Below are positions 1,793 through 64,000 of a DNA stretch of 64,000 bases, piece by piece. The translations under genes were made by a program, and so were the position numbers. The notes under the pieces are model-generated. The model was not told where the DNA came from. It saw only the letters and a program-made list of their open reading frames with translations, and did not search any database. How positions within the stretch are numbered: position 1 is the stretch's first letter; every line of letters begins with the position of its first letter. Source of the DNA: Candidatus Poribacteria bacterium (GTDB taxonomy: Bacteria; Poribacteria; WGA-4E; WGA-3G); NCBI GenBank assembly GCA_022823085.1, contig JAJDXV010000098.1, positions 8,828 through 72,827 on the forward strand, read 5' to 3'.

Positions 1793-1793
1793 T

Positions 1794-12931: not shown

Positions 12932-13086
12932 AAAAACCGATGACAATACACGTTCTATTTCGCGGTGGGTTTCAGTTTATATTTTGGGGTATGGTGTTTT
13001 GTGGTATTCGGCGGGAGAAGATTTGAGAGGATCCTTTTCTTGTCAGGATCCTCTTCTGAACGTATCACTGAGTGTTAAATGGATTG

Positions 13087-14520
13087 TCAAATATCAGAAC
13101 GGAAGAACTTCAGAAACGCCCCGGTTGTCAACGCCGCTAAAAAGAAACAGAGCAGAAGTACATCCACGAGAGAGTGACTCAACGTCTCAACTAACGAGGG
13201 AGTTTTTATGGCGGGGGGCTGCGTGATTGTAACAACATCGTCGGGTCTCATGATTCTTATAGAGACGTGATCTACGATTTTACTAAACAGCTCCGCATAA
13301 AGCATGCCATAATAATGCACGCTGGTGTCAAAGTAGTTGTTTCTTTTTACCTTTCCGGTCTGTGTTAAGTTCGTGACAAGATAAATAAGCGAAGAAGTTG
13401 GGGTGATGCGCGAGAGTGTCTCTCCGACCTGTTCTTGTCGCGCGATTTGACGTTTGTAATCCCGTTCAATTTTATCAGAGTGGTTTTGAAGTTTCGATCG
13501 ATATTCCTCTTCAAGAGGTTTGACACTTTCATCAATTTTTTTCAGTGCTTCCCCTGAGACTGCAGTAACACCTCTCTCATCGGGGGGGATCTCTCTGATA
13601 ATTTTCATTTTTTCCTTGTTGATTTGCTCATTGAAATCATCTCGCATGGCTGTTTTCTCCATGTAGATACTCTGCGCCGTTCGTGTGGGGACAATAAGTT
13701 TAGCTGTCAAAAATCCAACCCGGGGTGTAATTAACGCGGCGAACACCCAGACGGTAAAGGCAACGATGAGTGCTGTCTTGGAAGTGTCTAAGTAGGTAGA
13801 AATCACCGTGCCGATGGCGAAAAACACCGCGATGTAGAGCAGCGAGATAAGTGTCAGACTTAGGACTCGCGGGAAGATATCGGGTTCGCCGAGAGGAAAC
13901 CCCTGCCAGACGATTAACAGTAACCCGAACAGAAACGACACTAAGAAGGGCACCACAAACACAAGGTATCCGCCAATGAGTTTGCTCCATAAGAAGAGGT
14001 CCCGCGGGAGTGCGTTTGACAGGTTAATCCGCAACGTTCCGGCTTCTTTCTCCCCGGCAATAGCATCGAAGGTAAATAACAGTGCCAGTAGACTGAAGAC
14101 TGTGCCGACGACGAACAGAAAATCGAGATGCCCTAATAGATAGGAGACCGAGGAAGACAAGGCAGGTGGGCCTTGGGTGATTCCATTGCGAGTCATGCCG
14201 AGATAGCTCGGCAGCGTCTCACCTAATCCGTTTGCGAAGACACTCATGAGTGTGGGTTTGAGAAAAAGTTTGGAGACTTCGAGTTCGGGTTCCAAAGTGT
14301 CGTTGGGGTTCACGGTGGCTTCTTCGATATTTGCCAGTTTAACGGCTTCTTGGTAATCCACTAAGTTCTGGCGATAATTTTGGTAACTGATAGAAAGGGT
14401 CAGCGGGATGAGCAGGAGACACATCAAAAGGAGGGCGACGAACCTTGCACTCAGAATATGATGCATCATCTCTTTTTGAATCAATGTCATTAACATGGTA
14501 ACTTCTCCTCTATTTTTCAT
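13087..14520 (-). CDS. ABC-2-type transporter permease with a long cytoplasmic/coiled insertion
   Basis: Multiple hydrophobic spans (LLMCLLLIPLTL, FVVGTVFSLLALLF, GGYLVFVVPFLVSFLFGLLLIVW, ...) and a charged ~110-aa insert. Last gene of cassette 1. Confidence 0.45.
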   Translation of the reverse strand: MKNRGEVTMLMTLIQKEMMHHILSARFVALLLMCLLLIPLTLSISYQNYRQNLVDYQEAVKLANIEEATVNPNDTLEPELEVSKLFLKPTLMSVFANGLGETLPSYLGMTRNGITQGPPALSSSVSYLLGHLDFLFVVGTVFSLLALLFTFDAIAGEKEAGTLRINLSNALPRDLFLWSKLIGGYLVFVVPFLVSFLFGLLLIVWQGFPLGEPDIFPRVLSLTLISLLYIAVFFAIGTVISTYLDTSKTALIVAFTVWVFAALITPRVGFLTAKLIVPTRTAQSIYMEKTAMRDDFNEQINKEKMKIIREIPPDERGVTAVSGEALKKIDESVKPLEEEYRSKLQNHSDKIERDYKRQIARQEQVGETLSRITPTSSLIYLVTNLTQTGKVKRNNYFDTSVHYYGMLYAELFSKIVDHVSIRIMRPDDVVTITQPPAIKTPSLVETLSHSLVDVLLLCFFLAALTTGAFLKFFRSDI

Positions 14521-14583: not shown

Positions 14584-16209
14584 TCAAGGGGACAACAACG
14601 CCGATAGCTTTGGTTCATGTTTTGCCGGTTGATCTGATAGTTCCACGGTGCGATAAGGGCGTTCTTTCATCCACTGTCTAGGGGTCCAAGTTTTTGTAAA
14701 ATCAACCTCCGTGAAATCAGCGGCATCAATAATTTTAATATACACTTGGTCTGTTCCAGCAAATATGGGACTCTCATTGAGTTGATAGCCGAGTCGGATC
14801 CAATGCTTGTTAAGATAAGCTTCAACTTGACTGTGTCCGACAATCGTAACTTGATTGGGAGCCGATGGTTTCTCGTAAGAAAAGCTGCCAGCGACTCTTT
14901 CATCATTCAGGTTTTTAACCAGTCGCTTCCATTCACCTGTGCCTTTGTAATAATATATCAGGGGGACTCCCATGGTTACACGGGCAGGAATGCCGACGGC
15001 TCTCAACATTGTAGCAAGGAGGCGTGCCCGAGAAATACAGGCACCATATTGTTTTCGCTTAAACATTGAGTCACCAAAGTAATTCACCGCTAAAGCCTCT
15101 GTGACCTCTGCTTGGGTTACCTCCCTGCCTATGCTCTCAAAGAACGACCAGTCGGTAACGAGTTCTCCGTGCTGTTTATAAGTGTAAATAAAAGGGGCGT
15201 AAAGAGGAAGGGTTAATTTCATTTGCCCAACTTCGTGCATGAGTTTAGCTAGGACGTCTAATGTATTCGTTGCAGTGGATAGCATTTGCTGAATCTCCAG
15301 CTGCATTTCTGGTGAGTAATTCAGATCATAAGCAGGTGCAACATACTTTCTGAAGGATCCAGAGGGGGACTGATACGGATATGGTTCTGGAAGTAGAACG
15401 GGGGAAGCATACGGATAAACAATAACCTCTACCTTCTGATAGTCGGACTGCGTACTTTCCATAAGTCGTGCGTCTTGGAAAAGATCGTTCATCGCATCAA
15501 TATTCCAGGGCGGTTTTATATCAAGAACTGCCCTGATATTATAGGTATACTCTCTTCTCTCATCCCAATCTGTGTCGGATATCCCATCTCTATCACTATC
15601 AGCTAAGGTTGGATCTGTTCGATATTTGCAATACTCTTGATAATCTGTCAATCCATCCGCATCTGTATCAGAGGTTGTGGAGAGCGTGCCGAGTTGGGCT
15701 TCGAGTTCATCATCTAAGCCATCTTTGTCTGTGTCGCGTAGGGTTCCTGCATTAAATTTCTCGATGCGACTTTGCATTGTATGCGAGGGGGCGGTCATAA
15801 ACGTCAAGACATATTCATTGAGAGGTCTGCCCCATTTCCCTTTCATCAAGCCAGGGTCGTGGGATGTATTGTTTAAGTCGTCGTTCAAGACAATGCCATA
15901 AAACGCTTCTGGTTTTAACGGTTCTGTGAGATTCAAGGCTAAAATTGTTCGGTGTTCATCCATCCATTTGGGTGTGCCTTTGATCCGCATTCCTCGAAAG
16001 GTAAGGTGTTTTTCTTTTCTCATGGACTGATTAAAGACAAACCTAATTTGCCGTGTCTCAATTGGGACATGAGTTGCTGACATCGTTGGCACGGTTTCGA
16101 TAACTTTAGGGGCTGGCAAGAAACGTTTCACCAGAGATGGCAATAATGCCACGCAAAAAATTAGGATAAAAATAGTAAGGAGAAGCCGTTCTATTTTGAT
16201 TTTAGGCAT
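14584..16209 (-). CDS. Secreted/anchored protein: N-terminal Ig-like region, thrombospondin-type-3-like Ca-binding repeats, C-terminal transglutaminase-like cysteine-protease fold
   Basis: N-terminal TM/signal. DTDKDGLDD, DTDADGLTD and DSDRDGISD repeats. GACISRARLLATMLRAVGIPARV ... GHSQVEAYLNKHWIRLG fits the Cys/His pattern of the transglutaminase core. Confidence 0.55.
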   Translation of the reverse strand: MPKIKIERLLLTIFILIFCVALLPSLVKRFLPAPKVIETVPTMSATHVPIETRQIRFVFNQSMRKEKHLTFRGMRIKGTPKWMDEHRTILALNLTEPLKPEAFYGIVLNDDLNNTSHDPGLMKGKWGRPLNEYVLTFMTAPSHTMQSRIEKFNAGTLRDTDKDGLDDELEAQLGTLSTTSDTDADGLTDYQEYCKYRTDPTLADSDRDGISDTDWDERREYTYNIRAVLDIKPPWNIDAMNDLFQDARLMESTQSDYQKVEVIVYPYASPVLLPEPYPYQSPSGSFRKYVAPAYDLNYSPEMQLEIQQMLSTATNTLDVLAKLMHEVGQMKLTLPLYAPFIYTYKQHGELVTDWSFFESIGREVTQAEVTEALAVNYFGDSMFKRKQYGACISRARLLATMLRAVGIPARVTMGVPLIYYYKGTGEWKRLVKNLNDERVAGSFSYEKPSAPNQVTIVGHSQVEAYLNKHWIRLGYQLNESPIFAGTDQVYIKIIDAADFTEVDFTKTWTPRQWMKERPYRTVELSDQPAKHEPKLSALLSP

Positions 16210-20214: not shown

Positions 20215-21360
20215 TCAGAGGATTTGACTGATATCGACATCCCTGAGAAAAGAATGAACCATTCCCTTGGCGAGAAAGTTCACCAGTGCCCCTGCAACAA
20301 TCATGAAAGCAAAGGGGATCTTTTCTTGAATGAGCAAACTATTTCCAAACTTCAGAAAGCAGCCTTGCTCAGCAAGTCGCTGCAAGTCTGCTATTTGCGC
20401 CTGTGTCAATCCTTCGGAGGAAACATCGACGACAATATTATCTGCTGCTGGATTTGCAAAACCGACTGGGACCTTTACATGTATATCGGTTGCGTGTGGG
20501 CCTGGCATCCTGAGGATGCGTTCTGCGGGGATCATGTTAGGTTTAAGGGCTTTGATGGGTGTTGGCTTTGTAAACAAGGAACGGACGTAAGAACTGAATA
20601 TGAGTAGGCACAACGAAATTAGAAAAATATAGAAGATTAAACTCCCAAGGTCGATCAGCGATCGAATCAGTAAAAATATTGCCAGCGGGACAAAGAGCAT
20701 ATCAAATGCAAGTTGATACTTCTCTGGGATATGCCTTCTAACGCCCTTATTGAAGGCGAAGGCGATCATTACAAACAGGGCAAGTCGAAGGGCGAAGTCT
20801 AGCTCTATGCCGAGCCGTGATGGTATGTAAAAAGCCAATCCACCGACCGTTATATATGAAAACACTTCAAGGATGCGTCTCGGAAATTGTTTCAGTTGCA
20901 TCCGAAAACTTTCCGAAATTAATTGCTGCTGTAGCCGCAACGGCATTTTGTAAACTGCTTTCACAGTGACATAGATAAAAAACAGCAAAAAAATATTAGT
21001 CAGCAAAATCAACGGATAAAACTGCGTCTCTACAGTTTGGCTGAAGGCACTTGGGGGCATCAGTAAGATGATACCCCAAAACAATTTCGCATCTCCCGCT
21101 GCCCATATTCCTGTGTAAAACATCGCGAACGAGATCCCGAATCCGCCCAAAACGGTTGCGCAACTGTGAGCCCAGGTTATCTCACCTGCGGTTATGAAAA
21201 GTGCTTGACTGATACCGCCGAGAGCGATCAAAGTTAGGGTGTAGCTATTGGCAATTTTCCCATAGCGGAAATCGGTATAGCCTGTATAGAGCCCACAACT
21301 GAGGATCGCCAAGAATATTAGGTTTTCGTGTGTCAGAAGTTCAAAAATATTGATGTCCAT
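20215..21360 (-). CDS. Polytopic membrane protein with an A24 (prepilin/TadV-type) aspartic peptidase-like N-terminal half and an extra C-terminal domain
   Basis: ...YTGYTDFRYGKIANSYT... and ...GIWAAGDAKLFWGIILLMP... match the two Asp motifs of A24 peptidases. About 10 TM segments. The C-terminal ~110-aa soluble insert (MIPAERILRMPG...LTQAQIADLQRLAEQGCF) is shared with 33679..34815. Confidence 0.6.
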   Translation of the reverse strand: MDINIFELLTHENLIFLAILSCGLYTGYTDFRYGKIANSYTLTLIALGGISQALFITAGEITWAHSCATVLGGFGISFAMFYTGIWAAGDAKLFWGIILLMPPSAFSQTVETQFYPLILLTNIFLLFFIYVTVKAVYKMPLRLQQQLISESFRMQLKQFPRRILEVFSYITVGGLAFYIPSRLGIELDFALRLALFVMIAFAFNKGVRRHIPEKYQLAFDMLFVPLAIFLLIRSLIDLGSLIFYIFLISLCLLIFSSYVRSLFTKPTPIKALKPNMIPAERILRMPGPHATDIHVKVPVGFANPAADNIVVDVSSEGLTQAQIADLQRLAEQGCFLKFGNSLLIQEKIPFAFMIVAGALVNFLAKGMVHSFLRDVDISQIL

Positions 21361-21469
21361 ATCTGTGGGTATACTCCGTGATAATGAATGTTAAAAATTG
21401 TAAACATATTTTTAACTGTTTTGATTGAAGGTCGCTCCTACAAGGAGTGTTCTGGTTCGAGGTTCGTTC

Positions 21470-22861
21470 TTATTTAATCCATTGCATGGTTTCTCGGAGT
21501 TTTTCCTTGGCTTGTGCGTAATCTCGGCGTGTCTGATAGTAGACGCGTTGTGCCTCTGTAAATTGCGCCTGCGCTTGAAAGGCATCGTTGTAGGTCAGAC
21601 CTTGATAGCCGGGGATTTCGACGGTGACTTCATCCAGGACGCGCTCAATCGTCCGCAGCTGCTGCTCGAAAATTCTCACCCGCTTTTCTTCAATCTCCAT
21701 CCGTTCTCTCGCATTCGCCACCTCACGATAGTCACGTCGCACCTCTACGCGGATTGACTTCGTTTTCTCAATGTACTCCAACTGCATTCGCTCGAGTTCT
21801 GCGACTTCTCGGGAGCGAAGGTTCTTCGTCTTATTCCCATCGTATAACGGGATGTTGAACTTAAAACCCAGTTCCCATCCGTCTTGGGTGCGTGGATTTG
21901 TCTCAAAGAGACTCGCCCCATCTCGTTCACGGTCGAGTATCACCGGGTCATAGATGGCTTTTGCGTCCCACGTCTGGTTCCCTGCCTGTTGCTCCAGGAG
22001 TACACTGAGATCCTTATAGCGTGCTTCGGCAGTGAGTTCAGGGAAGCGACTCCAGAGGGTCTCTCCGGCGAGACGTTCTTGACGCAGCATATCGCCTTGT
22101 AAATCGCGTAGGTCAAGACTGTTTACGATTGCGAGTTCAACGGCAGCTTCGAGCGTCACATCGTCGTCTGGAAGCGGTCGTGAAAGCACAACTTGTGTGA
22201 GTGGGTCAAGTCCAGTGAGACTGATGAGTTCAGCGGTGTCTACGTCGAGTTGTCGTTGGAGTTCATTGAGTGCAAGTTGCTGTTCTGAGAGTTCCAATTC
22301 TGTATTGAGTTGGCGAAGGAAGGGGATCCGCCTTTGGGTCTGCTCAATTTTTGTGCCTTCCAGTTTTTTTTCGAGTTCCACTGCAATGGCACCGCGTTCT
22401 TTAATCTCTTCTTGTGTGAGGATAATATTATGCCAGAGATTCCGGGTAGCGTAGACGATCTCCTTCTTGGCGCGTTCGTATTCAATCTCGGCTTTGCGGA
22501 CCTCTTCCTGTGCGTCATCAAGACCTCGGGGGATCTCCCCGAATTGCGCAAAGAGCATGCTCATCTGTGCGCGCGTGAGATAGTCTCTATCATCAATGTC
22601 GCCATCTTTTTGGCGTTGATATTCACCAGTGAGTCCTACCTGTGGTAGGTAAACGGCTTTCGACACACGAAGGTTGGCTTTTGCGCGTTCAACGACTTTC
22701 TCTGCTTTTTTGACCGTCTCGTTGTTTTGCAAAGCGAGTTCTATTGCGCGTTTTGGCTGAAGCGAAACGAGTCGCTGTGCTGAAACGGTGCCCGAAAGGT
22801 ACAAACTTATAGTTTGTGCGACAAGCAGATACACCGCAAGTGGGGTCAACCTTTTGTTCAT
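21470..22861 (-). CDS. TolC-family outer-membrane efflux protein
   Basis: Signal peptide, then two long coiled/beta repeats typical of OEP family proteins (LQNNETVKKAEKVVERAKANLRVSKAVYLPQV...). Confidence 0.7.
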   Translation of the reverse strand: MNKRLTPLAVYLLVAQTISLYLSGTVSAQRLVSLQPKRAIELALQNNETVKKAEKVVERAKANLRVSKAVYLPQVGLTGEYQRQKDGDIDDRDYLTRAQMSMLFAQFGEIPRGLDDAQEEVRKAEIEYERAKKEIVYATRNLWHNIILTQEEIKERGAIAVELEKKLEGTKIEQTQRRIPFLRQLNTELELSEQQLALNELQRQLDVDTAELISLTGLDPLTQVVLSRPLPDDDVTLEAAVELAIVNSLDLRDLQGDMLRQERLAGETLWSRFPELTAEARYKDLSVLLEQQAGNQTWDAKAIYDPVILDRERDGASLFETNPRTQDGWELGFKFNIPLYDGNKTKNLRSREVAELERMQLEYIEKTKSIRVEVRRDYREVANARERMEIEEKRVRIFEQQLRTIERVLDEVTVEIPGYQGLTYNDAFQAQAQFTEAQRVYYQTRRDYAQAKEKLRETMQWIK

Positions 22862-38266: not shown

Positions 38267-38307
38267 GGTTTTTTCTCACCTTTCTATTGTTCACTAAGAG
38301 TGCTTTC

Positions 38308-38345
38308 AAAATTAAGGACACAATTTTCGGGGCAAAAAGGTGCAT
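38308..38345 (-). promoter_or_regulatory. Conserved promoter-like motif, copy 4
   Basis: Minus strand ATGCACCTTTTTGCCCCGAAAATTGTGTCCTTAATTTT, ~45 nt upstream of the GT start at 38266. Confidence 0.5.
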
Positions 38346-38396
38346 GATTTGAAAAAAATATGCGAACAGAATAGATCTAAAATGCATCCAGCCTTC

Positions 38397-38434
38397 AAAA
38401 TTAAGGACACAATTTTCGGGGCAAAAAGGTGCAT
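38397..38434 (-). promoter_or_regulatory. Conserved promoter-like motif, copy 5 (89-bp tandem duplicate of copy 4)
   Basis: Identical to copy 4 and part of a direct duplication of ~38304-38362. Confidence 0.45.
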
Positions 38435-39165
38435 GATTTGAAAAAAATATGCTGCTACCTTCGGCTAAAATATGGCTCAAATCCCTGAAATAGCAGGATT
38501 ATAGACGGACTTTATCTTTAAAAATTACATGATTTGAAAAAAATATGCGAACGTAGGATGGGACAATCGGATTGAAATTGTTATGTTTTTGATATTCAAA
38601 AACACATATTTATGCTGAAAAATTTGGATATAATATGCGAACTTGACACACCTCGAATCCCGGTAGCGGTCGTGGAATGTATTACTGACAAACACTTACA
38701 AGGAGCTCCCGCCTGCCCGAGTTTGTCCAACAAGCCGACATCACAGCCGTCCAGGAATCTCTGATTTCCCTCATTTTTTTTACGATACCCTCAAATCCTT
38801 TCACCAAAGCCCCTATAACGTCCGCAGAAGGACATCGCAGTGGAGATTCGCCGATTGTTATCTGTCCTTCCTGTAGCCCACAGATGCATAGATAGGGGTA
38901 TTCTCTAAAGGATCCCTCCTCTTTTTTCTGTTCTTCTTGTTAAACAGCAAAAATCAGTGGCTTTTCTGCCTTAAGAAGGGCCCCGTTTGCCTGCCTGTTT
39001 TTTAACAATTTTAATATATACTTTTAAATGTTTTAAGGGTGCTACCAACCCACGCCACATCTGACTTCCCAGACTTTAAGATGAGTATTTATGGTATGAA
39101 AGGTGAGTATTAATATTGGCAAAACTTTCCTTTATGATAGAATTTACTTAAGGAGGGTATCTCTC

Positions 39166-55370: not shown

Positions 55371-55511
55371 TTAACAGTTATGGTTTCTACGAGTACATGA
55401 GCCATCATAGAGTGGGCTTCCACCACTTTTTACGAGCACCGTGGCGTTGCCGTAACTGACTAACCGGGGTGCTTCGTAGGTTTTCTTTTCAGGCTTCAGC
55501 ATCTTACGCAT
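55371..55511 (-). CDS. Lasso precursor peptide C
   Basis: Identical RBS and leader DNA to B. MRKMLKPEKKTYEAPRLVSYGNATVLVK/SGGSPLYDGSCTRRNHNC. Confidence 0.75.
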   Translation of the reverse strand: MRKMLKPEKKTYEAPRLVSYGNATVLVKSGGSPLYDGSCTRRNHNC

Positions 55512-55581
55512 CGTTTTCACCTCCTTTCATATATTAATTTAGATATGCGACGAAAAGGTCGCAAACCACTTATTAGAAACA

Positions 55582-55709
55582 TTAGGTGTTATTCCGAGCA
55601 CTTGATTCATACTGAACAATGCCAGAGCCTTTGATTAACGCGGTAGCATTGCCGTAGCTAACTGAGATACTTGATAGTCTTTCTTTGTTGACTTTAACAT
55701 CTTACGCAT
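55582..55709 (-). pseudogene. Decayed lasso precursor copy D
   Basis: No RBS. MRKMLKSTKKDYQVSQL, then a 4-nt deletion relative to its siblings. The shifted frame still reads YGNATALIK/GSGIVQYESSARNNT*. Confidence 0.65.
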
Positions 55710-55776
55710 TTTTTCTTTTTTCAAACTTTAATTTGCAAACATGACTGAAAAATCGAAAAACACTCGCTACCGAGTA

Positions 55777-55917
55777 TTAGTAATTAGAGTTTTTGCGAGT
55801 ACCTCCGCAATCAAGATTTTTGGTTCCACCATTTTTTATGAGCACCATGGCATTGCCGTAGCTGACCAACTGAGGTGTTTCGTAGGTTTTCTTTCCAGAT
55901 ATGAACATCTTACGCAT
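55777..55917 (-). CDS. Lasso precursor peptide E
   Basis: AAAGGA RBS. MRKMFISGKKTYETPQLVSYGNAMVLIK/NGGTKNLDCGGTRKNSNY. Confidence 0.7.
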   Translation of the reverse strand: MRKMFISGKKTYETPQLVSYGNAMVLIKNGGTKNLDCGGTRKNSNY

Positions 55918-56015
55918 TGTTTCTCACATCCTTTCATATCTAATTTAAAACTTGTTTGCGGTGTTAGGATCTGCGATCTACCTATTACAAACATTACTGA
56001 CACGGCTTGCTTTCT

Positions 56016-56053
56016 ATACTTAAGGACACAATTTCAGATTGAAAAGGATGCAG
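56016..56053 (-). promoter_or_regulatory. Conserved promoter-like motif, copy 7
   Basis: Minus strand CTGCATCCTTTTCAATCTGAAATTGTGTCCTTAAGTAT, ~100 nt upstream of precursor E. Confidence 0.5.
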
Positions 56054-56090
56054 AAGCAGATACCACCTACAACCCAAAGACCTTTTATTC

Positions 56091-56798
56091 CTATACGCTC
56101 CTCAAAGCTTCAAAATCGGCGTTAAAGAAGTTGCTGGATTCATAGGAGAGTGGGTGCCCAACGGATTTCACTTCTTGAATCTGTATTTCTATACCATAAT
56201 CTATCATCCGCTGGAGGGCATTTGTGAGCTGATATTTTCCATTTCGGAGGTGTCCTGCCTGAATCAACTCATCCAGACACGCAAAGAGCAATTTGCTTTC
56301 TCGAATGAAATAACATCCTGCAATCACTAAGTCTGTCCGTCTCGGTTTATGAATTAAGCATCCAACGATGCCATCTCTGAGTTCGACTAAACCGTAAGGT
56401 TTCTCATCAACGATACGCCGGACAGCAATTGTTGAGCACTGACTTTGCGTAAACGCTGTCCAGTTCAGATTTACGCCTGCTTCCGCCTCGACGATGAGCA
56501 GCGGTTCCTCAGAGATATGATTACTGGCTAACGAAATCGAGTGCCCTAATCCTTTTTCTTCCGTCTGTTCAATGAAAGAAGCCGTCATCTCACTATAGTT
56601 AGCCTCCATATAGGCTTGAATCGGGTTGGTTGGATAATCGGTGATAAATATAAACTCAGACACCGGCAGTTTGCACAAGGGTTGAATCAAATGTGTAAGA
56701 GTCGGGCGCCCCTTGTATTGAGGTAGCGGGTCAGAGATCCGATCTGTATGTGGTACGAACGGCGATGTGTTTTCTGTAAATGGAAAGATTACTTTCAT
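56091..56798 (-). CDS. Sugar-phosphate nucleotidyltransferase-like protein
   Basis: ...KGRPTLTHLIQPL...EKGLGHSISLA...EKPYGLVEL.DG.V..LIHKP...VIAGCYF...GKYQLTNALQRMIDYG... (NTP_transferase pattern). Confidence 0.55.
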   Translation of the reverse strand: MKVIFPFTENTSPFVPHTDRISDPLPQYKGRPTLTHLIQPLCKLPVSEFIFITDYPTNPIQAYMEANYSEMTASFIEQTEEKGLGHSISLASNHISEEPLLIVEAEAGVNLNWTAFTQSQCSTIAVRRIVDEKPYGLVELRDGIVGCLIHKPRRTDLVIAGCYFIRESKLLFACLDELIQAGHLRNGKYQLTNALQRMIDYGIEIQIQEVKSVGHPLSYESSNFFNADFEALRSV

Positions 56799-56821
56799 AG
56801 TTCACCTCATCTAGGTGCGGC

Positions 56822-57451
56822 TTACGCGCCTCCACGACACTTAAGAGTTTCATACTGAAGATAAGGTTGCAGCTTATCGCGGAGTTTCCGGTGTGCTTGA
56901 TATAAGTGGGTTTTAATGGTTCCTTCGGCCTTGCTCAAGCGCGAGGCAATCTCTTTTATCTTGAGTCCATCTTGGTAGCGGAGATTAAAAACGCGACGTT
57001 GGATGGGGGATAATCGACGCACGGCCACGCTCAAGAGGTGGTTGAATTCCTCCTTTTCAAGGATTTCATCGGGCGATGCGTGCGTCCCATCAATTTGAAG
57101 CCCATCCGCTACGGTCTCGGGTAACTCTGCGACTCCAAAAACGATTTCTCGCTTTTGTCTGCGGAGGAAATCAAGGCTACAATTGATAGCAATTCGGTGG
57201 AGCCAACTGTAAAATGCGGCACCTCTTCTAAAATTCGGTAGTGCCTGCCAGGCCTTAAGGAATACTTCTTGACAGAGATCTTCTGCTGTTTCAGAGTGGC
57301 GAACCCGCTTGTAAATCAAATTATAGATTCTTTGTTGGTATCTACACACAATTGGATTAAACGCCTGTGTATCGCCATTCTGGGTCCGCTGAATGAGCTC
57401 GGTGTCACTTAGAGCGTTGAACGAGTCACGCGTCGTTAATACCTCTTTCAT
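56822..57451 (-). CDS. ECF-type sigma-70 family factor
   Basis: From ATG 57451 (AAGGAG RBS): ...FNPIVCRYQQRIYNLIYKRVRHSETAEDLCQEVFLKAWQAL... (region 2) and ...LRYQDGLKIKEIASRLSKAEGTIKTHLYQAHRKLR (region 4). Confidence 0.85.
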   Translation of the reverse strand: MKEVLTTRDSFNALSDTELIQRTQNGDTQAFNPIVCRYQQRIYNLIYKRVRHSETAEDLCQEVFLKAWQALPNFRRGAAFYSWLHRIAINCSLDFLRRQKREIVFGVAELPETVADGLQIDGTHASPDEILEKEEFNHLLSVAVRRLSPIQRRVFNLRYQDGLKIKEIASRLSKAEGTIKTHLYQAHRKLRDKLQPYLQYETLKCRGGA

Positions 57452-57487
57452 GTTTTGCTCCTTAGATGATGCTATTCTTATCCTTTT

Positions 57488-57525
57488 ATAATTAATGACA
57501 CAATCTTGAAGGGAAAAGGGTGCAT
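57488..57525 (-). promoter_or_regulatory. Conserved promoter-like motif, copy 8
   Basis: Minus strand ATGCACCCTTTTCCCTTCAAGATTGTGTCATTAATTAT, ~40 nt upstream of the ECF sigma start. Confidence 0.5.
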
Positions 57526-57799
57526 GCGGTGGAAAATGGATGCGATGTGCTCGGATCCACGGGTGGGCTTGCGGAGTAGATGGGGTTCCTAAAGGACGGG
57601 GTTTCCACACCGAAGAATTTGATAGATAAAAGGGTGGTATCTGATACACCGGGGATATAATAGCAATGCAAGTCAAGCGCGAGAAGCTGCGATCAAGCGG
57701 ATCTTGGTCGAGGTCGGCATCTGTTAGCACTGACAGAGCAGGGGTCGCGAACGGGCATAAGAGTATTGAGGGTAAATCAGATTTGACCTATTTCAATTC

Positions 57800-57985
57800 C
57801 TTTCTGCCTTTTCGTCCTCATAAGCGGCGTTGATGGGTACGAGGATGTCTTGGCAGAACTCTTCAGCGAGGATGGCGTTGATTTCTGCGGTGACCTACCA
57901 CCTTTTTTGATACACTGCGAGGGAGGCGTGTTCAAGGAATCGTTATAGGACGATGTAGGATTGTATTCTTTCTATGGATGTGATT
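57800..57985 (-). pseudogene. Rep gene remnant (3' end), interrupted by IS3 sequence
   Basis: DNA is alignable with 7360-7540. The translation ...RIQSYIVL*..VTAEINAILAEEFCQDILVPINAAYEDEKAE compares with Rep ...RIQSYIVRQRL...MVTAEINAILAAEFCQDLIAPVQTAYEDEKEK. Confidence 0.7.
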
Positions 57986-58341
57986 CCGCTTGTCGATAGA
58001 TAGGCCTTTGAAAGATACTGTACACCTTGATCGGAATGATGTATCTCAGGGACGCTTCGGTGTAATGCTGCTTCCAGGGGTTTCAACGTCAGCGGTTGCA
58101 TCAGATGTTGACTGAGCTGCCACGCTCTAATCATCCGAGTGAAGACATCCATGAGTAGAAAAACATAGACGAAGCGTCCCTTGAGACGCACATAGGTAAT
58201 ATCAGACACCCAGACCTGATCCTGATGAGAGACATTAAGGGTTTCAAGACGGTTACGCCAAGGCTTCTCTCCCTGAAGCGATGTTGTTGTTTGACAGGCA
58301 CGCTTGACGGCGACCAACAGATTATGGGTTTGTACTGCCAT
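57986..58341 (-). pseudogene. IS3-family OrfB (rve/DDE integrase core) fragment, 5'-truncated
   Basis: ...DQVWVSDITYVRLKGRFVYVFLLMDVFTRMIRAWQLS...VPEIHHSDQGVQYLSKAYL. Its 5' end abuts the left end of the oppositely oriented IS3 copy. Confidence 0.7.
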
Positions 58342-58405
58342 CGGAAATTAGGGCCACCCCCTAAACCAAGATTGTATAATACAATCTCACTGAAAGGAGC
58401 ATCCG

Positions 58406-58690
58406 ATGGCGAAACGAAAACGAAGAAACTTCACCCCCGAGTTTAAAGCGGCGGTCGTTCTGGAGGCCCTCCGCGGTGAAAGTTCCCAAGCAGAACTGTG
58501 TCGTCGACACAACCTCAGCGATGACCAACTCTCGAAGTGGAAGCAGCAGTTTCTTGAAAATGCAGCGTCTCTCTTTGCATCGAACGATAAGGCATCTGAA
58601 GATGCTGCGGAACGCATCGCGCACCTTGAGCAGCTCGTTGGGCGGTTGACTGTGGCCCTGGACATCGAAAAAAAGCCTCAACCTGGTTGA
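58406..58690 (+). CDS. IS3-family transposase OrfA (HTH)
   Basis: 94 aa, classic IS3/IS911 OrfA N-terminus. Confidence 0.8.
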   Translation: MAKRKRRNFTPEFKAAVVLEALRGESSQAELCRRHNLSDDQLSKWKQQFLENAASLFASNDKASEDAAERIAHLEQLVGRLTVALDIEKKPQPG

Positions 58691-59438
58691 ACTGACCTCG
58701 GCTGAGAAGCGAAACCTCGTAGAGGCGTTGCGGGACGATTATTCAGTTCGAGAGATTTGCGAGACACTCGGTTTCCACCGGAGCCTTCTCTATTATCCCC
58801 GAAAAGCGACCCTTCTCAAAAGGTGCTTGAAGCGGAAATAGAGCAGTTATGTGCGCGGTATCCGACATAGGGGTATAGGCGTATCACCCACTTGCTGGTA
58901 AATGCGGGATACACGGTTGGGTATCGCCGTGTTGCCCGATTGCTGAAAGAAAAGCATCTCTGGGTTTCCGGTAAACGGGGTGCCTGTCAAACCACGAGAT
59001 CGCTTGAAGGGGCAAGGTTTCCGTGGGTCAATCGACTTGAAGCTCTTGACATCTGCAGACGCGATCAGGTCTGGGTTGGCGATATTACCTACGTCCGTCT
59101 GAAAAGACGCTTCGTCTGTGTTTTCTACTCATGGATGTCTTCAGTCGCATGATAAAAGAGTGGAAACTCAGTCAACATTGAAACCGCTCCAAGAAGCGTT
59201 GTGCCAAAGCGTCCCGGAGATCCACCATTCCGATCAAGGCGCGCAGTATCTTTCAAGTGCTTATATTTCCACCCTCACGCGTCATGGGATTGAGATTTCA
59301 TTAGCACAGAGAGGCTGCCCTTGGGAGAACGGATATGCTGAACGCCTCATCCGCACGCTCAAGGAAAAAGAAGTTTACCTCAATGCATATGAGGACATTC
59401 ACGAAGTGAGAGTCCGCATTGGTCGTTTTATCACATAG
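58690..59438 (+). pseudogene. IS3-family transposase OrfB, broken by stops/frameshifts
   Basis: The reading frame must be switched at least twice (a TAG after ...CARYPT, and a shift near 59120-59150). Confidence 0.7.
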
Positions 59439-59722
59439 GTGTATCATTAGAAACGCCACACTCGGCGTTAGGGTATTTGACACCTGTCGAGTTTCAGCAA
59501 AAAACCTTGTCTTAACTTTGCGAAATTGTGGTATAAATAAACGTATGCACTACAGAACCTATTTTCTGGCGACATCGCGCGTTGCAGGCATGCAATATTT
59601 CCTGTGAGTTTCACTGGTGTGTGAAATACACAGAAAAGTGAATGGTTTCCCATAAGGACGCAACCTGCACGCGACACGATCCGTCCAAACTTTAGTATAA
59701 GATATACACAGAGGAAAACGGT

Positions 59723-61507
59723 ATGAACATCCGCGTCGGTAACTTATCTTATAAAGCCACGGAAAAAGAACTTGAAGAACTTTTTAGTAAATACGGAAGA
59801 GTGGTCGAGGTTACAATTAATCGTCATCAAAGCGGTCGCTACAAAGGTCAATCGAACGGGACAGGTTTTGTGAGGATGGAGAACCAAGAAGAAAGTAAGC
59901 AAGCAATAAAAGCGTTGGATGGGCACATGCTGAGGAAACGGCCGCTAGCGTGTCAGGACGAGAAAGAGCATTTCTTCCACAATCCGTACACCTTTGTTCC
60001 GACCCCTCCGCGTCCGTTAAGTTGTATGTGTGCTGGTGATTTCGCTGGCGACTTCAACCCATTAAAGCATCCATGCGGGGAAGAACACAATCTATGCCAT
60101 GCATCTCTCAAGAAGCATCTCTGGACAGGACATATCCCGATTAAACTGACCGCTGTCACACCCATCGTCTTACTTAAGAATGATGGCACGGAACGGGATT
60201 CAAAGGAACACCAGGTTTATGATGTACACGACCACATTCCAGCACCCTCGTTACGTGGTATATTGCGTAGTGCCTACGAAGTGGTGACAAACTCGCGCTA
60301 CGGGTGTTTTGATACAGATCAATCGAAACAATTGCGCTCCCTTGACGAATCGCTGAGACCAGCAGAAAATATGGATCAACTGTCACCTGCGGATCGCTTG
60401 TTCGGGTGGACCCCACAAGGACAACAAGTTCATGGTGGTTATAAGGGCCGGATACGCGTTATCTGCGAAGAGGTGGTTTCTGCGAACGCTGCTCGTAAAG
60501 ACGAGGAGAAACCAGAAATCATCAAACGCTTTGAAGGCGGAGACCTCCCTCTGACAATCCTAAGTGCCCCGAAACCCTCCTATGCCCGTTTTTATGTCGC
60601 TAAAGATAAGCAAGGAACACCACAGTATGATGGGATTCCAAAAAAAGAAATTGCCTATGAGGGTTTACGAGGTCGAAAGCAATATTGGCATCATAGAGGT
60701 TTGGAAATAGACCCATCCAAAAGCGAACACGATCAGGAACAGGCGACAGCATATTGGCATCCATCTGTTGAAGATCGCACGCAGATTAAGCATAACGATC
60801 GGTATCAAGAATACCGCCGACCTGATGGGCATCGTAAAGGTCAAAATCCAAGTAGGGAAGATCAGAATCCAAGTGGTTGGCAGCAAAAGAACAAAGACAA
60901 CCGCTCTATTAAAGGGTGGATTCCGCCTGGTACTGTGTTTAAAGCGAGTTTGTACGTGCAAAATCTGGAATCTACAGAGGTTGGGGCTCTGCTTTGGCTC
61001 CTATCACTTAACGAGAAAAAATGTAAGGCAGATGACAAGCATTACTTTCGGATTGGGTACGGCAAGCCTTTAGGTTTCGGCAGTGTAACGATGGAAATTG
61101 ATGAAGATCGATGCCTAGATGGGTATCTGCCACTCAGCACCGGCAAAGATTTGGAAAATTACTACGCGTCCTTTGACGCGGATATGTCTTCATTGGCAAA
61201 GTTAGATCAGAACCAACGGAGTTGTTGTATTCAGAAATTTAAGACCAGTATGGAGCAAACCTACCCTGATAGAGGATCTTTTGACAAGCTTCTGTTCATT
61301 GAGAGATTTCTACAGGTTCTACGCGGTCCGAAAACAGATCTCTCGATTCACTATCCGCGGCTAACTTGTAAACCAAGTACGGCGGGTCAGAACTTTGACT
61401 GGTTTAATGTGAATGACGATAAAAACAAAGAAAAGGAAGGTCTAAAACTTTCACTACCATATGTAACCGAGAAAAAAGGACTGCCCTATAATCCACACAA
61501 AAAGTGA
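59723..61507 (+). CDS. RRM-domain fusion to a large RAMP-superfamily (Cas7/TIGR03986-like) protein
   Basis: Residues 1-~80 are an RRM (RNP2 IRVGNL, RNP1 NGTGFVRM, AIKALDGHMLRKRPL). Then come FFHNPYTFVP, IPAPSLRGILRSAYEVV, ADRLFGW, YKGRIRV and a C-terminal Gly-loop IGYGKPLGFGSV. Confidence 0.7.
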   Translation: MNIRVGNLSYKATEKELEELFSKYGRVVEVTINRHQSGRYKGQSNGTGFVRMENQEESKQAIKALDGHMLRKRPLACQDEKEHFFHNPYTFVPTPPRPLSCMCAGDFAGDFNPLKHPCGEEHNLCHASLKKHLWTGHIPIKLTAVTPIVLLKNDGTERDSKEHQVYDVHDHIPAPSLRGILRSAYEVVTNSRYGCFDTDQSKQLRSLDESLRPAENMDQLSPADRLFGWTPQGQQVHGGYKGRIRVICEEVVSANAARKDEEKPEIIKRFEGGDLPLTILSAPKPSYARFYVAKDKQGTPQYDGIPKKEIAYEGLRGRKQYWHHRGLEIDPSKSEHDQEQATAYWHPSVEDRTQIKHNDRYQEYRRPDGHRKGQNPSREDQNPSGWQQKNKDNRSIKGWIPPGTVFKASLYVQNLESTEVGALLWLLSLNEKKCKADDKHYFRIGYGKPLGFGSVTMEIDEDRCLDGYLPLSTGKDLENYYASFDADMSSLAKLDQNQRSCCIQKFKTSMEQTYPDRGSFDKLLFIERFLQVLRGPKTDLSIHYPRLTCKPSTAGQNFDWFNVNDDKNKEKEGLKLSLPYVTEKKGLPYNPHKK

Positions 61508-61574
61508 AGCGCAGATGTTTGCTACCCACGTAAGCAATATGAAGAGAATCTTCATGTCTAAAAGGAGGAACAAG

Positions 61575-63023
61575 ATGCAGATTGACGTTAGTAATATCCC
61601 CTTTAAAGCCACGGAAGAAGAGTTGAAAACGCACCTTGAGTGCCATGGTGAGGTTACCTCTGTGGAAATTGTCCTCGCAAAAAAAGGTAAATTCAAAGGT
61701 AAATCTACAGGAAAGGCAATCGTCAAGACGGCAACCACAGAAGATGGGTTTGCCATCATTGAAGCCCTGAATGATGTTGAGTTTCAGGAACGCTGTCTAA
61801 CGATCAAACCCAGAAGCGGGACACAAGTCATTTTCACAGTTGGGGCCAACGCTTTGCCTATTTGGGTGGCTTGGAAACACTTGGTAGATTTTAAGGTTCT
61901 GGAGGAAGAAATTTGTGTGCCGCCACCGATTCAGGTACGCCTCGTGTATACAGAAAACACGAGTTTACAGAAAGATCGTATCGTGTCTTCATGTTCACTT
62001 CCAGCAACGCCAGGGTATGTCTCTGAAAAGAGGGATACTGTGAGCAGGGACATCCTAACGTCGCCGGGGGCACCAGAAATCATCCGCAAAGACATCCAAC
62101 GATATATTTTTGGTAGTAATGACGATGGTTTACCAGATAACATTGATCATCTTCACGTCCACTACACCGGTGGTACCCAGGCGATGGGTGTCGAAACAGT
62201 GGCAACCATTGAATCGAAAGTAAGTAGTAATCAAAAGATTAACAATAAGGAAATCGGATTCAGTACCACCTACTTGAATGCCCGTGACGATAGCGACGTG
62301 CCAAAAATTATGGGACCGCATGGGGAACTTGTGGGCGACGCTCGCGTAGGTATTGATCTCGATCTTGAATTTATTGCTAAACTCAACGGCATTAAGATCA
62401 AGGAACCTAAGTCGACCTTGGATCACGAACGGCGAGAAAAGGCGTTGGAAGTTGTTAAAAATTGGGATACTGAGAGGAAGAACACCATTGTGTCTGGTGA
62501 TCTCAAGGGTCAACCTTCTTTTATGGAATTGTTGGATAGTTCTGAATCCAAGATGTTTTGTAAAAAGGGCGACCCATTGGAGTACGCAGCGTATGCGACT
62601 TTTGATTCAGTTCTCCAAGAGATCCAGTCTCAAAACTCTGATCGTAAGTATAAGCTCTACCATGATGTAAAGCGTGACCGGGGATCTGCCCCCGATTTTC
62701 AACTGGATGTGGTGGCAGTATTAGGATATCAGATTATCCTTATTTCTTGTGGGGTTTCCGGTAAGAGAACTGAGATCAAATGCAAAGCCATGGAGGCCTA
62801 TCATCGGACAAAACAACTCGGCGGTGATGAGGCACGAGCTGTGATGTTGTGCGGTCTCACTGGAGACAAGGCAGAGGACCTCCAAGAAGATTTAAAGGAT
62901 GATATTGGGACTGACCACGCGCACCTCCAAGTATGGGGAAAGGATAAGTGGCCTACAAACACCGCACCTAATGAGTTGGTTGAAGCAGTTAGAAAATACT
63001 TAAACAAACTGGGTTGGCAGTGA
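61575..63023 (+). CDS. RRM-domain fusion to a CARF-like Rossmann region and a PD-(D/E)xK-nuclease-like C-terminal region
   Basis: ATG at 61575 lies behind AAAGGAGGA. RRM: IDVSNIPFKATEEELKTHL...GKAIVKT...ALNDVEFQERCLTIKPR. CARF-like: VIFTVGANALPIWVA...HVHYTGGTQAMG. Nuclease-like: LEYAAY...FQLDVVAVLGYQIILISCGVSGK...QLGGDEARAVMLC. Confidence 0.55.
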   Translation: MQIDVSNIPFKATEEELKTHLECHGEVTSVEIVLAKKGKFKGKSTGKAIVKTATTEDGFAIIEALNDVEFQERCLTIKPRSGTQVIFTVGANALPIWVAWKHLVDFKVLEEEICVPPPIQVRLVYTENTSLQKDRIVSSCSLPATPGYVSEKRDTVSRDILTSPGAPEIIRKDIQRYIFGSNDDGLPDNIDHLHVHYTGGTQAMGVETVATIESKVSSNQKINNKEIGFSTTYLNARDDSDVPKIMGPHGELVGDARVGIDLDLEFIAKLNGIKIKEPKSTLDHERREKALEVVKNWDTERKNTIVSGDLKGQPSFMELLDSSESKMFCKKGDPLEYAAYATFDSVLQEIQSQNSDRKYKLYHDVKRDRGSAPDFQLDVVAVLGYQIILISCGVSGKRTEIKCKAMEAYHRTKQLGGDEARAVMLCGLTGDKAEDLQEDLKDDIGTDHAHLQVWGKDKWPTNTAPNELVEAVRKYLNKLGWQ

Positions 63024-63042
63024 ACTGCTAAGGATACACCAT

Positions 63043-64000
63043 ATGTCAGTTTCTATTCACAAAGGTAAATGTATCGTACTCTTCGGGGCAGCGAGTCGTC
63101 AAAAATATATTTTTCAGAGCAACCGTTTGAAAGAAAACGTTGGCGCGTCGCATCTCGTTAAATGCGCTTTTGAAAAAGACCTGATCGATGCAATAGAACA
63201 AAAAACACCGTACTCTGTTAATACAGATGGATGGGATAAATATACGAAAGCGACTTGGGATAGTAATAGTGTGAATATCCCAGGACCTCAACCTATGCCC
63301 GGAAGTTGTGAGAAGGAGTTCGTTGAGGTCATCTACATCGGCGGTGGACAAGCTACACTACTCTGTGGAAGCCGAGATATTGCCAATGAAGTTGTCAAAG
63401 TGTGGAGTTGCAGACTCCTGAAAAAGGCACCCGGGTTCCGAGTTACTGTTGGTTACGGTGAGGTTGACGATGCCTATCCGACACTTGCCAAGGCGTATCG
63501 TCGAGCAGTGGATGACTTAATCCTTTGTGAGGAGGCGCTACCGTTCGGCACTACCTTTCACGGTTTGCCACCGGTTCGTACTTGCATCAGTACGGGGTTC
63601 CCCGCAAGTGAGCTTAGCACGGAACCAGAAGAGCCAGGCCAATGGATATCACGAGTTGCTCATCGGAAACGAGAGGTTTCAAAAGATGCTGTCACGGACG
63701 AGTTAGAATCGATTCTGGAAGAGGGCCAGGAATTTGTCATTCATTTTGATCAGTTAGGCGGTAGTGAAGGGCACTCCTATATTGCTGTGGTACATGCCGA
63801 TGGCGATAGAATGGGTAAATGGCTTGACAAAGTTATAGACGCGCCCGAAAAGGATGACGAAAAATTTATTCATAACCTTCGTGCATTTTCTGCTTCCGTA
63901 TCTTATCAGTCTCTGCGTGCTTTAAAGGCGACACTGAACTTCCTGAAAACCGAATTGGAACGTTTGAAAGATATTTTATCGGTCGATACTAAAAAACTTT
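63043..64000 (+). CDS. Cas10/Csm1-like polymerase-cyclase (Palm) protein without an N-terminal HD domain; partial, continues past the right edge
   Basis: Open frame with no stop from ATG 63043 (AAGGA RBS) to the window end. MSVSIHKGKCIVLFGAASRQKYIFQSNRLKENVGASHLVK..., EVIYIGGGQATLLCG..., SYIAVVHADGDRMGKWL.... This gene is not in the ORF track because it has no stop. Confidence 0.6.
   Translation, partial: MSVSIHKGKCIVLFGAASRQKYIFQSNRLKENVGASHLVKCAFEKDLIDAIEQKTPYSVNTDGWDKYTKATWDSNSVNIPGPQPMPGSCEKEFVEVIYIGGGQATLLCGSRDIANEVVKVWSCRLLKKAPGFRVTVGYGEVDDAYPTLAKAYRRAVDDLILCEEALPFGTTFHGLPPVRTCISTGFPASELSTEPEEPGQWISRVAHRKREVSKDAVTDELESILEEGQEFVIHFDQLGGSEGHSYIAVVHADGDRMGKWLDKVIDAPEKDDEKFIHNLRAFSASVSYQSLRALKATLNFLKTELERLKDILSVDTKKL

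Follow-up and report, generated by a model that had tools for sequence, protein, structure and literature searches.

A probable type III-Dv CRISPR-Cas operon of Candidatus Poribacteria with RNA recognition motif domains on Cas7 and on a Can2-like nuclease

Identity of the operon

What kind of system is encoded by three co-directional genes at the downstream end of a 64,000-nt stretch of DNA from a Candidatus Poribacteria bacterium (contig JAJDXV010000098.1; the whole stretch is called the window here), two of which begin with an RNA recognition motif (RRM) domain and all of which resemble type III CRISPR proteins? A reading made from the letters of the window (the sequence-only reading) took them for a module that has neither a CRISPR array nor cas6 and in which RNA is captured by RRM domains rather than only by a CRISPR RNA (crRNA) guide. 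The analyses presented here indicate that the locus is probably a crRNA-guided type III-Dv CRISPR-Cas operon with an array and cas6, of which these are the first three genes, and that the RRM on its Cas7 belongs to a module found throughout a clade of such operons. The whole explanation, comprising the type III-Dv identity, the mechanism, and the readings of the RRM domains, is considered quite likely. The genes and domains within the window are as follows.

59723..61507, plus strand, gene 1, 594 aa, RRM fused to a TIGR03986-family Cas7
59723..59962, plus strand, RRM of gene 1, residues 1-80, RNP2 IRVGNL, RNP1 NGTGFVRM
61575..63023, plus strand, gene 2, 482 aa, RRM fused to a Can2/Card1-type CARF and PD-(D/E)xK nuclease
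61575..61814, plus strand, RRM of gene 2, residues 1-80, RNP2 IDVSNI, RNP1 TGKAIVKT
61818..62474, plus strand, CARF (Rossmann-like) domain of gene 2, TVGANALP and HYTGGTQ motifs
62562..63023, plus strand, PD-(D/E)xK nuclease domain of gene 2, DFQLDVV
63043..64000 and beyond, plus strand, gene 3, the 5' 319 codons of cas10

The three open reading frames (ORFs) lie where the sequence-only reading placed them, all the motifs that it quoted are present in the translations, and its domain calls (RRM plus RAMP, RRM plus CARF and restriction-endonuclease-fold nuclease, and Cas10 without an HD domain) agree with profile searches and, for gene 2, with a Foldseek search of a structural model. It was also correct that the 64-kb window itself holds no CRISPR array, and neither a tRNA gene nor an Rfam family was found there. 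Inspection past position 64000 overturned the claim of a system without array and cas6, as both are present on identical DNA: window positions 55489-64000 are identical to positions 1-8512 of scaffold_297 (94 kb) of the ENA metagenome KELL22-1, here called L003. The features past the window end were taken from L003, whose DNA was covered up to cas6, and relatives were used further out.

L003, ending at 9252, cas10, 565 aa, ending 740 nt past the window, AYGGDDLTF in the full-length translation
L003, after cas10, cas7-cas5(csx10)-cas11 fusion, 825 aa
L003 11738-13306, cas7-2x (double cas7), 522 aa
L003, ending at 13997, csx19, 233 aa
L003 14167-14725 (window terms ~69655-70213), CRISPR array, ~170 nt after csx19
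L003 15180-16694, minus (opposite) strand, SAVED-PD-(D/E)xK nuclease, 504 aa
L003, starting at 17471, cas6, Cas6 Pfam domains, coding region exceeding the stretch covered

The array thus lies 5.7 kb and cas6 lies 9 kb past the window end. The window fragment of gene 3 matches PADLOC Cas10d with an E value of 3e-49, and the full-length Cas10 does so with 8.1e-116. This protein begins directly at Palm1 without an HD domain, has its GGDD cyclase motif in the part outside the window, and matches the type III-Dv Cas10 chain 8s9t_C (E=5.6e-29), with residue 11 aligned to chain residue 20. The 825-aa protein matches PADLOC Cas7_IIId over residues 5-238 (7e-37) and Cas5_IIId over residues 96-726 (8e-96), as well as the "Cas7-Cas5-Cas11" chain 8s9t_A (E=4.4e-13); its length and homology suggest that it also includes a Cas11 part. 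The 522-aa protein has two Csm3/Csx7-like stretches and matches Cas7_IIId (2e-103, PADLOC), Csx7 (TIGR02581; 109.3 bits, cut-off 108), and, as a Cas7-2x, chain 8s9t_D (E=9.7e-16). In the alignment of its residues ~25-35 with 8s9t_D, the column of the catalytic Asp of the first Cas7 domain (D33 in Synechocystis) is a gap beside a Glu (GSAE-MS). Csx19 matches TIGR03984 at 57.4 bits (cut-off 35) and the Pfam family CRISPR-assoc_Csx19.

The SAVED nuclease is Cap4-like (PADLOC SAVED3--SAVED_PDDEXK, 1e-117), its homologues are named Candidatus Poribacteria, and its gene separates the array from cas6 in each of the four close relatives. The protein probably serves the system as a second receptor for cyclic nucleotides. 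With a GGDD Cas10 and with CARF and SAVED receptors alongside, the cyclic-oligonucleotide-type signalling proposed in the sequence-only reading is plausible. In the relative L004, Cas6 is full length (326 aa).

The assignment to type III-Dv follows from the downstream genes, array, and cas6 on identical DNA and from the matches to the 8s9t chains. The closest known system is the type III-Dv system of Synechocystis sp. PCC 6803 (pSYSA CRISPR2; PDB 8S9T-8S9X; Schwartz et al., Nat Commun 2024, PMC11026444), which shares all five effector subunits, fusions included, i.e., an HD-less GGDD Cas10, Cas7-Cas5-Cas11, Cas7-2x, Csx19, and a TIGR03986 Cas7. Four of these subunits match chains A, C, D, and E of 8s9t directly and Csx19 is matched by profile, with protein identities of 24-35% to the Synechocystis system, which likewise has a Cas6, an array of 37-nt repeats, and CARF-type ancillary effectors. 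The two systems differ in several respects. The gene order is circularly permuted, with the TIGR03986 cas7 and the CARF gene first here and cas7 last in Synechocystis; the ~112-residue "uncharacterized" N-terminal domain of the Synechocystis subunit is replaced by a recognizable RRM; the ~240-aa insertion domain of the Synechocystis Cas7 is absent from gene 1; and the adjacent CARF effector is of the Can2 type here and of the Csx1/Csm6 type in Synechocystis. A TIGR03986-like Cas7 module is also found in type III-D2 (Cas7-5, Cas7x3, and Cas10, with SAM-AMP signalling; PMC13294483) and type III-E (Cas7-11/gRAMP), and gene 1 matches 9wxh_D of type III-D2 (E=4e-13) and the Cas7-11 chains (1e-5 to 5e-8). 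However, both types lack Csx19, and type III-E also lacks Cas10 and Cas5, whereas Csx19, a Cas7-5-11 fusion, and a separate Cas7-2x form the type III-Dv pattern seen here. No CorA-type effector was seen at this locus.

An RRM or cold-shock domain at the N terminus of Cas7

Residues 3-75 of the gene 1 product match Pfam RRM_1 with an E value of 3.3e-18 and 65.8 bits (gathering score, 20.7). The body of the protein matches Pfam RAMPs (E=4e-8), NCBIfam TIGR03986 (207.5 bits; cut-off, 161.35), and chain 8s9t_E, the "TIGR03986 family RAMP" or Cas7-insertion subunit (E=4e-66). Residues 84-202 align with 113-222 of that chain and residues 206-591 with 465-794, which leaves chain residues 223-464, the ~240-aa insertion domain, without a counterpart. 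Long-form homologues have ~238 extra residues at the insertion point. These alignments mark gene 1 as a short-form orthologue of the type III-Dv Cas7-insertion subunit. In an AlphaFold2 model, its RRM shows the beta-alpha-beta-beta-alpha-beta fold with a pLDDT of 74-86 over most of the segment. One of the three canonical RNP aromatics (RNP2 position 2 and RNP1 positions 3 and 5) is kept, and the domain belongs to a subclade whose beta2-beta3 loop is three residues longer. The match to NCBIfam NF058537, the bacterial single-domain RRM family, is 60 bits, below its cut-off of 100.

The N-terminal domain was counted with phmmer in the 120 best matches to gene 1 out of 1649 in the database; these homologues already carry the annotation "TIGR03986 family." Among these 120, 64 have an RRM and 47 have a cold-shock domain, 4 more appear cold-shock-like by eye, which gives about 52 cold-shock domains, and the remainder are fragments or an insertion sequence (IS) fusion. 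Long (800-950 aa) and short (530-640 aa) forms of Cas7 both occur with either domain, the long forms among the best 120 comprising 52 with an RRM and 28 with a cold-shock domain. The family-consensus Cas7 RRM is canonical (RNP2 IYVGNV, RNP1 KGFGFVEM), with all three aromatics, and in this it is like the RNP2 and RNP1 of free-standing bacterial RRM proteins of the cyanobacterial Rbp type; unlike free-standing bacterial RRM and cold-shock proteins, the domains here are fused to CRISPR proteins. A scan that covered a single genome for each GTDB species recovered the operon from metagenome-assembled genomes (MAGs) of Candidatus Poribacteria, Latescibacterota, and Binatia, and at least 13 MAG or metagenome loci of these groups share the order RRM- or cold-shock-Cas7, Can2-like, Cas10, Cas7-5-11, Cas7-2x, Csx19, and in some cases Cas6. 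The TIGR03986 gene closes the operon in Synechocystis, Nostoc, Streptomyces, and a Gemmatales MAG, where the N-terminal 80-112 residues of its product have no Pfam match and are recognized as neither an RRM nor a cold-shock domain. The possibility that this cyanobacterial-type N-terminal domain is a divergent cold-shock domain or RRM was tried with hhalign on a shallow alignment of seven sequences and found no support, with probabilities of 0.7% and 0.2%, respectively.

The N-terminal RRM or cold-shock domain of Cas7 is a clade-wide module whose two forms are interchangeable. It occupies the slot that the N-terminal domain has in the type III-Dv subunit from Synechocystis, of which the first 112 residues are "uncharacterized," invisible in cryo-electron microscopy owing to flexibility, and located beside the head that presents the seed (PMC11026444). 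A large sister clade thus places two folds that bind single-stranded RNA (ssRNA) where the best-studied type III-Dv Cas7 has an invisible N-terminal domain with no function attached to it. The view of the sequence-only reading that the RRM fusions are unusual did not hold for the RAMP protein, since about 116 of these best 120 of 1649 homologues have an RRM or cold-shock domain, and it did hold for the CARF nuclease (5 of 285 homologues, as described below). Its statement that RRM fusions to type III components had not been described stands, as a literature search that covered papers available without subscription found none on RRM or cold-shock fusions to TIGR03986 Cas7, type III-D, or CARF proteins. 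The RRM/cold-shock module on the seed-end Cas7, together with the rare RRM-Can2 protein with its altered active site and a mini-array rich in spacers antisense to tRNAs, forms a type III-Dv variant for which no description could be found in the literature.

In an 87%-identical relative (L005 10001-11749, protein P0002), the N terminus of an IS3 OrfA (HTH_Tnp_1) stands in frame in place of the Cas7 RRM. The IS family fused to this Cas7 is the same as that of the debris adjoining gene 1 in the window (58406-58690).

The RRM-Can2 fusion

Gene 2 encodes a protein with an N-terminal RRM and a Can2-like remainder. Residues 5-75 match Pfam RRM_1 (E=4.9e-7, 30 bits; gathering score, 20.7), and the protein matches PADLOC CARF4--CARF_PDDEXK (E=1.3e-38) and the Can2 of Thermoanaerobacter brockii, TbrCan2 (PDB 8q3y; E=5e-21). 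Its AlphaFold2 model (pLDDT, 82; pTM, 0.73) contains the RRM fold elements, and Foldseek gives T. brockii Can2 as the best match of the model (E=1.9e-23, TM 0.64), with Can2 proteins as all of the top matches and E values of 1e-13 to 2e-23 for Can2, Card1, and VC1899. The N terminus matches RRM structures (7jly; probability, 1.0; TM 0.68), and the match to NF058537, at 38.7 bits, is below the cut-off of 100. Homologues that begin with MQIDV or MKIDV support the start of gene 2 at 61575.

TbrCan2, a clade 1 ancillary nuclease of type III-D (PDB 8Q3Y-8Q44; Jungfer et al., NAR 2023, PMC10783487), has the same CARF plus PD-(D/E)xK architecture, and both proteins carry the TGGT motif that binds cyclic tetra-adenylate (cA4). 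The HYTGGTQ of gene 2 corresponds to the NxTGGTK cA4-binding motif of Can2 (PMC10783487), and the CARF columns T88, V89, G90, and N92 and Y197, T198, G200, and T201 are invariant in the family alignment. Gene 2 is predicted to be a cA4 receptor. In the nuclease domain, the equivalents of E304, D343, K369, and E372 of TbrCan2 are retained in the HMMER alignment, and the equivalent of E341, a catalytic metal ligand, is Q (QLD) in just the four RRM-fused proteins, i.e., gene 2 and three close relatives, with ELD elsewhere in the family; the complete catalytic E-ExD-...-K motif is not found in gene 2. The E341A variant of TbrCan2 is the "catalytically inactive" mutant that was used for substrate complexes, and the second Mn2+ ion is lost in it. 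Gene 2 further differs from TbrCan2 in its extra RRM, in its SxTTS substrate motif, which reads SCGVS, and in the T12 equivalent, which is A. None of the three canonical RNP aromatics is kept in the gene 2 RRM, and its dN/dS relative to the L004 protein is 0.18. The degenerate RRM and the E-to-Q replacement together suggest that gene 2 is probably an attenuated, altered, or repurposed effector.

RRM_1 on Can2 is rare. The 5 of 285 homologues in which it was found are gene 2 itself, the 825-aa protein P0125, and three relatives that are 80-86% identical. Other homologues are 350-390 aa long and start where residue 82 of gene 2 aligns, and further proteins with N-terminal extensions have, where checked, no RRM. 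In an HMMER search over 1.84 billion representative proteins, the sole 50%-identity cluster that aligned from residue 1 was gene 2's own. Unfused Can2 homologues are encoded on the same contigs as, and directly after, the RRM- or cold-shock-Cas7 gene. Between the RRMs of genes 2 and 1, identity is 34% (E=2e-14), and the former is nearest to the long-loop Cas7 subclade to which the latter belongs, with ~38-42% identity versus an average of 34% and with the same loop length, which makes an origin from the neighbouring cas7 likely. The gene 2 RRM is a recent, lineage-specific copy, probably of the RRM of the neighbouring Cas7. The gene 2 RRM of the relative in L005 has a 10-residue loop deletion.

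A second case occurs at locus L008 (8016-12478), where a Cas7 with a cold-shock domain is followed by an RRM fused to two tandem CARF-nuclease units in a Can1-like layout. The RRM of this protein is 88% identical to the Cas7 RRMs of other loci, and the local Cas7 bears a cold-shock domain, which is a clear case of independent RRM transfer. Repeated transfer of RRMs onto Can2, taken with the replaced catalytic residue, gives a hint that this ancillary effector may have ceased to be a nuclease.

The CRISPR array and its tRNA-like spacers

The L003 array contains eight 37-nt repeats with a period of 72-78 nt. The 3' part of the repeat, TTTCCCGTTTGAAGGGAATCGAAAC, is conserved, and the first 12 nt are variable. 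The repeat is of the same family as those of a 64-repeat array in L008 (CTTTCGCTGTGCTTTCCCGTTTGAAGGGAATTGAAAC) and a 25-repeat array in L021, and the Rfam CRISPR-DR matches to the array are weak. This csx19-adjacent mini-array is homologous in four relatives (L003, L004, L005, and L027), in which the leader and trailer are conserved, the alignment covering L003 13998-15179 and the corresponding regions of the others, whose genes differ by a dS of 0.1-0.3. The leader contains a promoter-like TTGACT-17-TATACT site, recognized by eye, at L003 14075-14103. The mini-arrays and SAVED nuclease genes of the other relatives are located as follows.

L004 11972-12374, mini-array
L004 10001-11515, SAVED nuclease
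L005 19870-20409, mini-array
L005 20865 onward, SAVED nuclease
L027 ~12400-13300, mini-array
L027 13756-15273, SAVED nuclease

Spacers 1, 2, and 4 are common to the four mini-arrays at 94-100% identity, and the middle spacers differ, which indicates that the arrays have been dynamic. Several spacers resemble tRNAs in the antisense orientation. L003 spacer 7 (14651-14688; window terms, ~70139-70176) is antisense to the D-arm and anticodon arm of tRNA-Gln, with a score of 25.6 bits against Rfam tRNA, under the gathering score of 29 (E=0.005 in a search of 621 nt), and with 89.5% identity over 38 nt to the minus strand of the annotated tRNA-Gln of Caulobacter phage CcrBL10. A spacer of L005 and L027 is 92% identical over 37 nt to phage tRNA-Thr genes, and the variants of spacer 2 have a putative anticodon that changes from CUC to UUC, both reading Glu. 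A T-arm is present in the reverse complement of 6 of the 27 unique mini-array spacers and in the sense orientation of none, and shuffled sequences give 0.026; these six form three families, all from L004, L005, and L027 and none from L003. The spacers of the large arrays of L008 and L021 have no T-arm (0 of 87). An Rfam tRNA scan of the L027 mini-array gave no match, the sub-threshold match of L003 spacer 7 being the only one to tRNA. Exact cores of spacers 7 and 2 are absent from IMG/VR, those of spacers 2 and 4 are absent from JGI metagenomes, and the spacers have no match in the window and related loci besides the homologous arrays.

Type III adaptation oversamples tRNA and rRNA genes (PMC8860593), so a tRNA-derived origin of spacers is not surprising in itself. 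The exclusively antisense, i.e., targeting, orientation of the tRNA-like spacers is notable, with phage and host tRNAs both being possible targets, and raises the question of whether type III systems of sponge symbionts target phage tRNAs.

Proposed mechanism and alternative explanations

In the proposed mechanism, Cas6 would cut the array transcript to give crRNAs with an 8-nt AUYGAAAC handle, as suggested by the repeat sequence, and one copy each of Cas7-5-11, Cas7-2x, Csx19, Cas10, and the TIGR03986 Cas7 would assemble on the crRNA, with the last capping its 3' (seed) end by homology to PDB 8S9T. Upon pairing with a complementary transcript, the GGDD Palm of the HD-less Cas10 would make cyclic oligoadenylate (cOA), as expected from its Synechocystis homologue; target-RNA-dependent cOA synthesis has been shown for the Synechocystis type III-Dv system, in which cOA activates a CARF nuclease. 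The messenger would then activate the Can2-like CARF protein, probably along with the SAVED nuclease, while the RRM of Cas7, held on a flexible tether at the target-entry end, would capture or unfold target transcripts beside the crRNA seed. The position of the slot thus leads to a concrete hypothesis, in which the domain helps to catch or melt target RNA beside the seed. Two unrelated ssRNA-binding folds alternate, mostly with their RNA-binding residues kept, on a flexible tether at the seed end, which argues that the domain binds ssRNA non-specifically; this specific role, the capture or unfolding of targets near the seed, has about an even chance of being correct. If so, the clade would provide a natural case of a CRISPR effector that boosts its target search with a generic RNA-binding domain, with relevance to the engineering of compact RNA-targeting tools from type III-D and III-E systems.

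Several points weigh against the explanation as a whole. The RRM of gene 1 shows partial degeneration of its own, with R for Y in RNP2 and with N and T in RNP1, and AlphaFold2, given 17 sequences, modelled gene 1 poorly outside the RRM (mean pLDDT, 46.9). Gene 1 lacks the insertion domain that holds the seed, so its geometry may differ from that of 8S9T, and, with hhalign probabilities below 1% for the cyanobacterial-type domain, the idea of an RNA-binding slot does not yet generalize. That the two RRMs bind RNA, that cOA is made, and that the nucleases are active are predictions from computational analysis. No cas1 or cas2 was seen in the DNA covered around the locus, and, together with the small array and the heterogeneous 5' 12 nt of its repeats, this leaves current activity unproven.

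Rather than capturing targets, the Cas7 RRM or cold-shock domain may act on the crRNA, keeping hold of the repeat-derived 3' tail while the Cas6 intermediate is trimmed or standing in for the insertion domain in seed presentation. Such a role would fit the capping of the crRNA 3' end by this subunit in 8S9T, the absence from gene 1 of the domain whose residues cradle the seed, and the fixed length of type III-Dv crRNAs. However, the long forms that keep the insertion bear the same RRM or cold-shock domain (52 and 28 proteins, respectively), which argues that the domain is not simply a substitute for the insertion, and this explanation is regarded as unlikely.

The RRMs might instead be protein-protein or assembly modules of a UHM-like kind, with the Can2 RRM docking on the Cas7 RRM and tethering the nuclease so that cA4 acts locally. 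The RNP aromatics are all lost from the gene 2 RRM and partly lost from the gene 1 RRM, the two RRMs are paralogous and encoded side by side, and the gene 2 RRM is under purifying selection (omega, 0.18), all of which would be expected of such a tether. The pairing is not obligatory, however, as the RRM-Can2 of L008 stands beside a cold-shock Cas7 and an IS fragment has taken the place of the Cas7 RRM in L005. Across the family, the Cas7 slot holds a canonical-RNP RRM or an unrelated cold-shock domain, which points to generic ssRNA binding rather than to a specific protein interface, making a docking role rather improbable.

A reading that joins the fusions with the spacers can be entertained with a similarly low degree of belief. 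In this clade, the RRM or cold-shock domain of the seed-end Cas7 would be an RNA-chaperone "antenna" with which the effector catches and unfolds structured RNAs, and the sub-lineage of the window would have specialized against tRNAs, presumably phage encoded. Its vertically inherited mini-array has spacers antisense to tRNA-Gln, tRNA-Thr, and other tRNA halves. Can2, having gained an RRM and lost a metal ligand (E to Q), would have turned into a cA4-gated effector that binds or sequesters RNA, with the killing left to the SAVED nuclease.

It is also quite improbable that the locus is a decaying, non-functional remnant, in which the degenerate RNP motifs, the E-to-Q replacement, and the heterogeneous repeats would reflect erosion. 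IS3 debris adjoins gene 1, the array is short with divergent 5' halves of its repeats, adaptation genes were not seen nearby, the catalytic E of gene 2 is replaced by Q, and the Cas7 RRM of L005 was destroyed by an IS element. Nevertheless, four relatives that were assembled independently retain every gene intact, the genes all have dN/dS values of 0.2-0.5, with 0.18 in the RRM of gene 2, and the arrays of the relatives have different middle spacers, as in dynamic arrays. The E-to-Q replacement and the RRM are common to all four, which fits a derived functional state.

Finally, an array-less type III-like module in which RRM domains, instead of or beside a crRNA, capture the RNA that triggers Cas10, as the lack of an array, cas6, and cas1/2 in the 64-kb window and the two RRM fusions in adjacent genes had suggested, is almost certainly wrong and already refuted by the downstream sequence, given the array and cas6 on identical DNA, the Cas5 (Csx10) domain and Csx19 that hold the crRNA 5' tag in 8S9T, and relatives with the same operon that bear arrays of 25-64 repeats and a reverse transcriptase with Cas1, so that the system is not guide independent. 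The preferred reading thus remains that of a crRNA-guided type III-Dv operon whose Cas7 RRM would assist in engaging target RNA.

Surroundings and minor features

Directly upstream of gene 1 lies IS3-family debris, which is context outside the system.

57943..59438, both strands, IS3-family debris
58406-58690, HTH_Tnp_1 piece of the debris, E=4.7e-15
57943-58341, minus strand, rve fragment
59118-59438, plus strand, rve fragment

These fragments bear out the IS3 debris reported in the sequence-only reading, and the plasmid rep remnant that it placed next to the genes was not recovered: the upstream ORFs tested encode a nucleotidyl transferase, an ECF sigma factor, and a glycosyltransferase, and nothing of that kind was among them. 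A scan for promoters and terminators over 59300-64000 gave a result no better than shuffled sequence.

The L008 locus also carries cas6 and, at 20412-22478, cas1 and a reverse transcriptase gene. Between the latter two, at 21585-21692, lies a long, near-perfect hairpin of GGAAGG/CCTTCC repeats, which has sub-threshold "miRNA-like" matches alone in Rfam.

Three sets of repeats were observed elsewhere in the window. An intergenic gap (38302-38548) holds two copies of a 62-nt direct repeat, 98% identical and separated by 89 nt, and a partial third copy follows after another 96 nt; this repeat is not CRISPR-like. Tandem 21-nt repeats, CGATATAAACCTATGCCTTTA, occur in 4.9 copies at 592-695, with related copies ~8 kb away at 8719-8831, and the 8-nt unit TGCTGGCA forms two runs 8 kb apart, at 1070-1151 and 9184-9241. 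The 21-nt and 8-nt repeats look like iterons or part of a large duplication.

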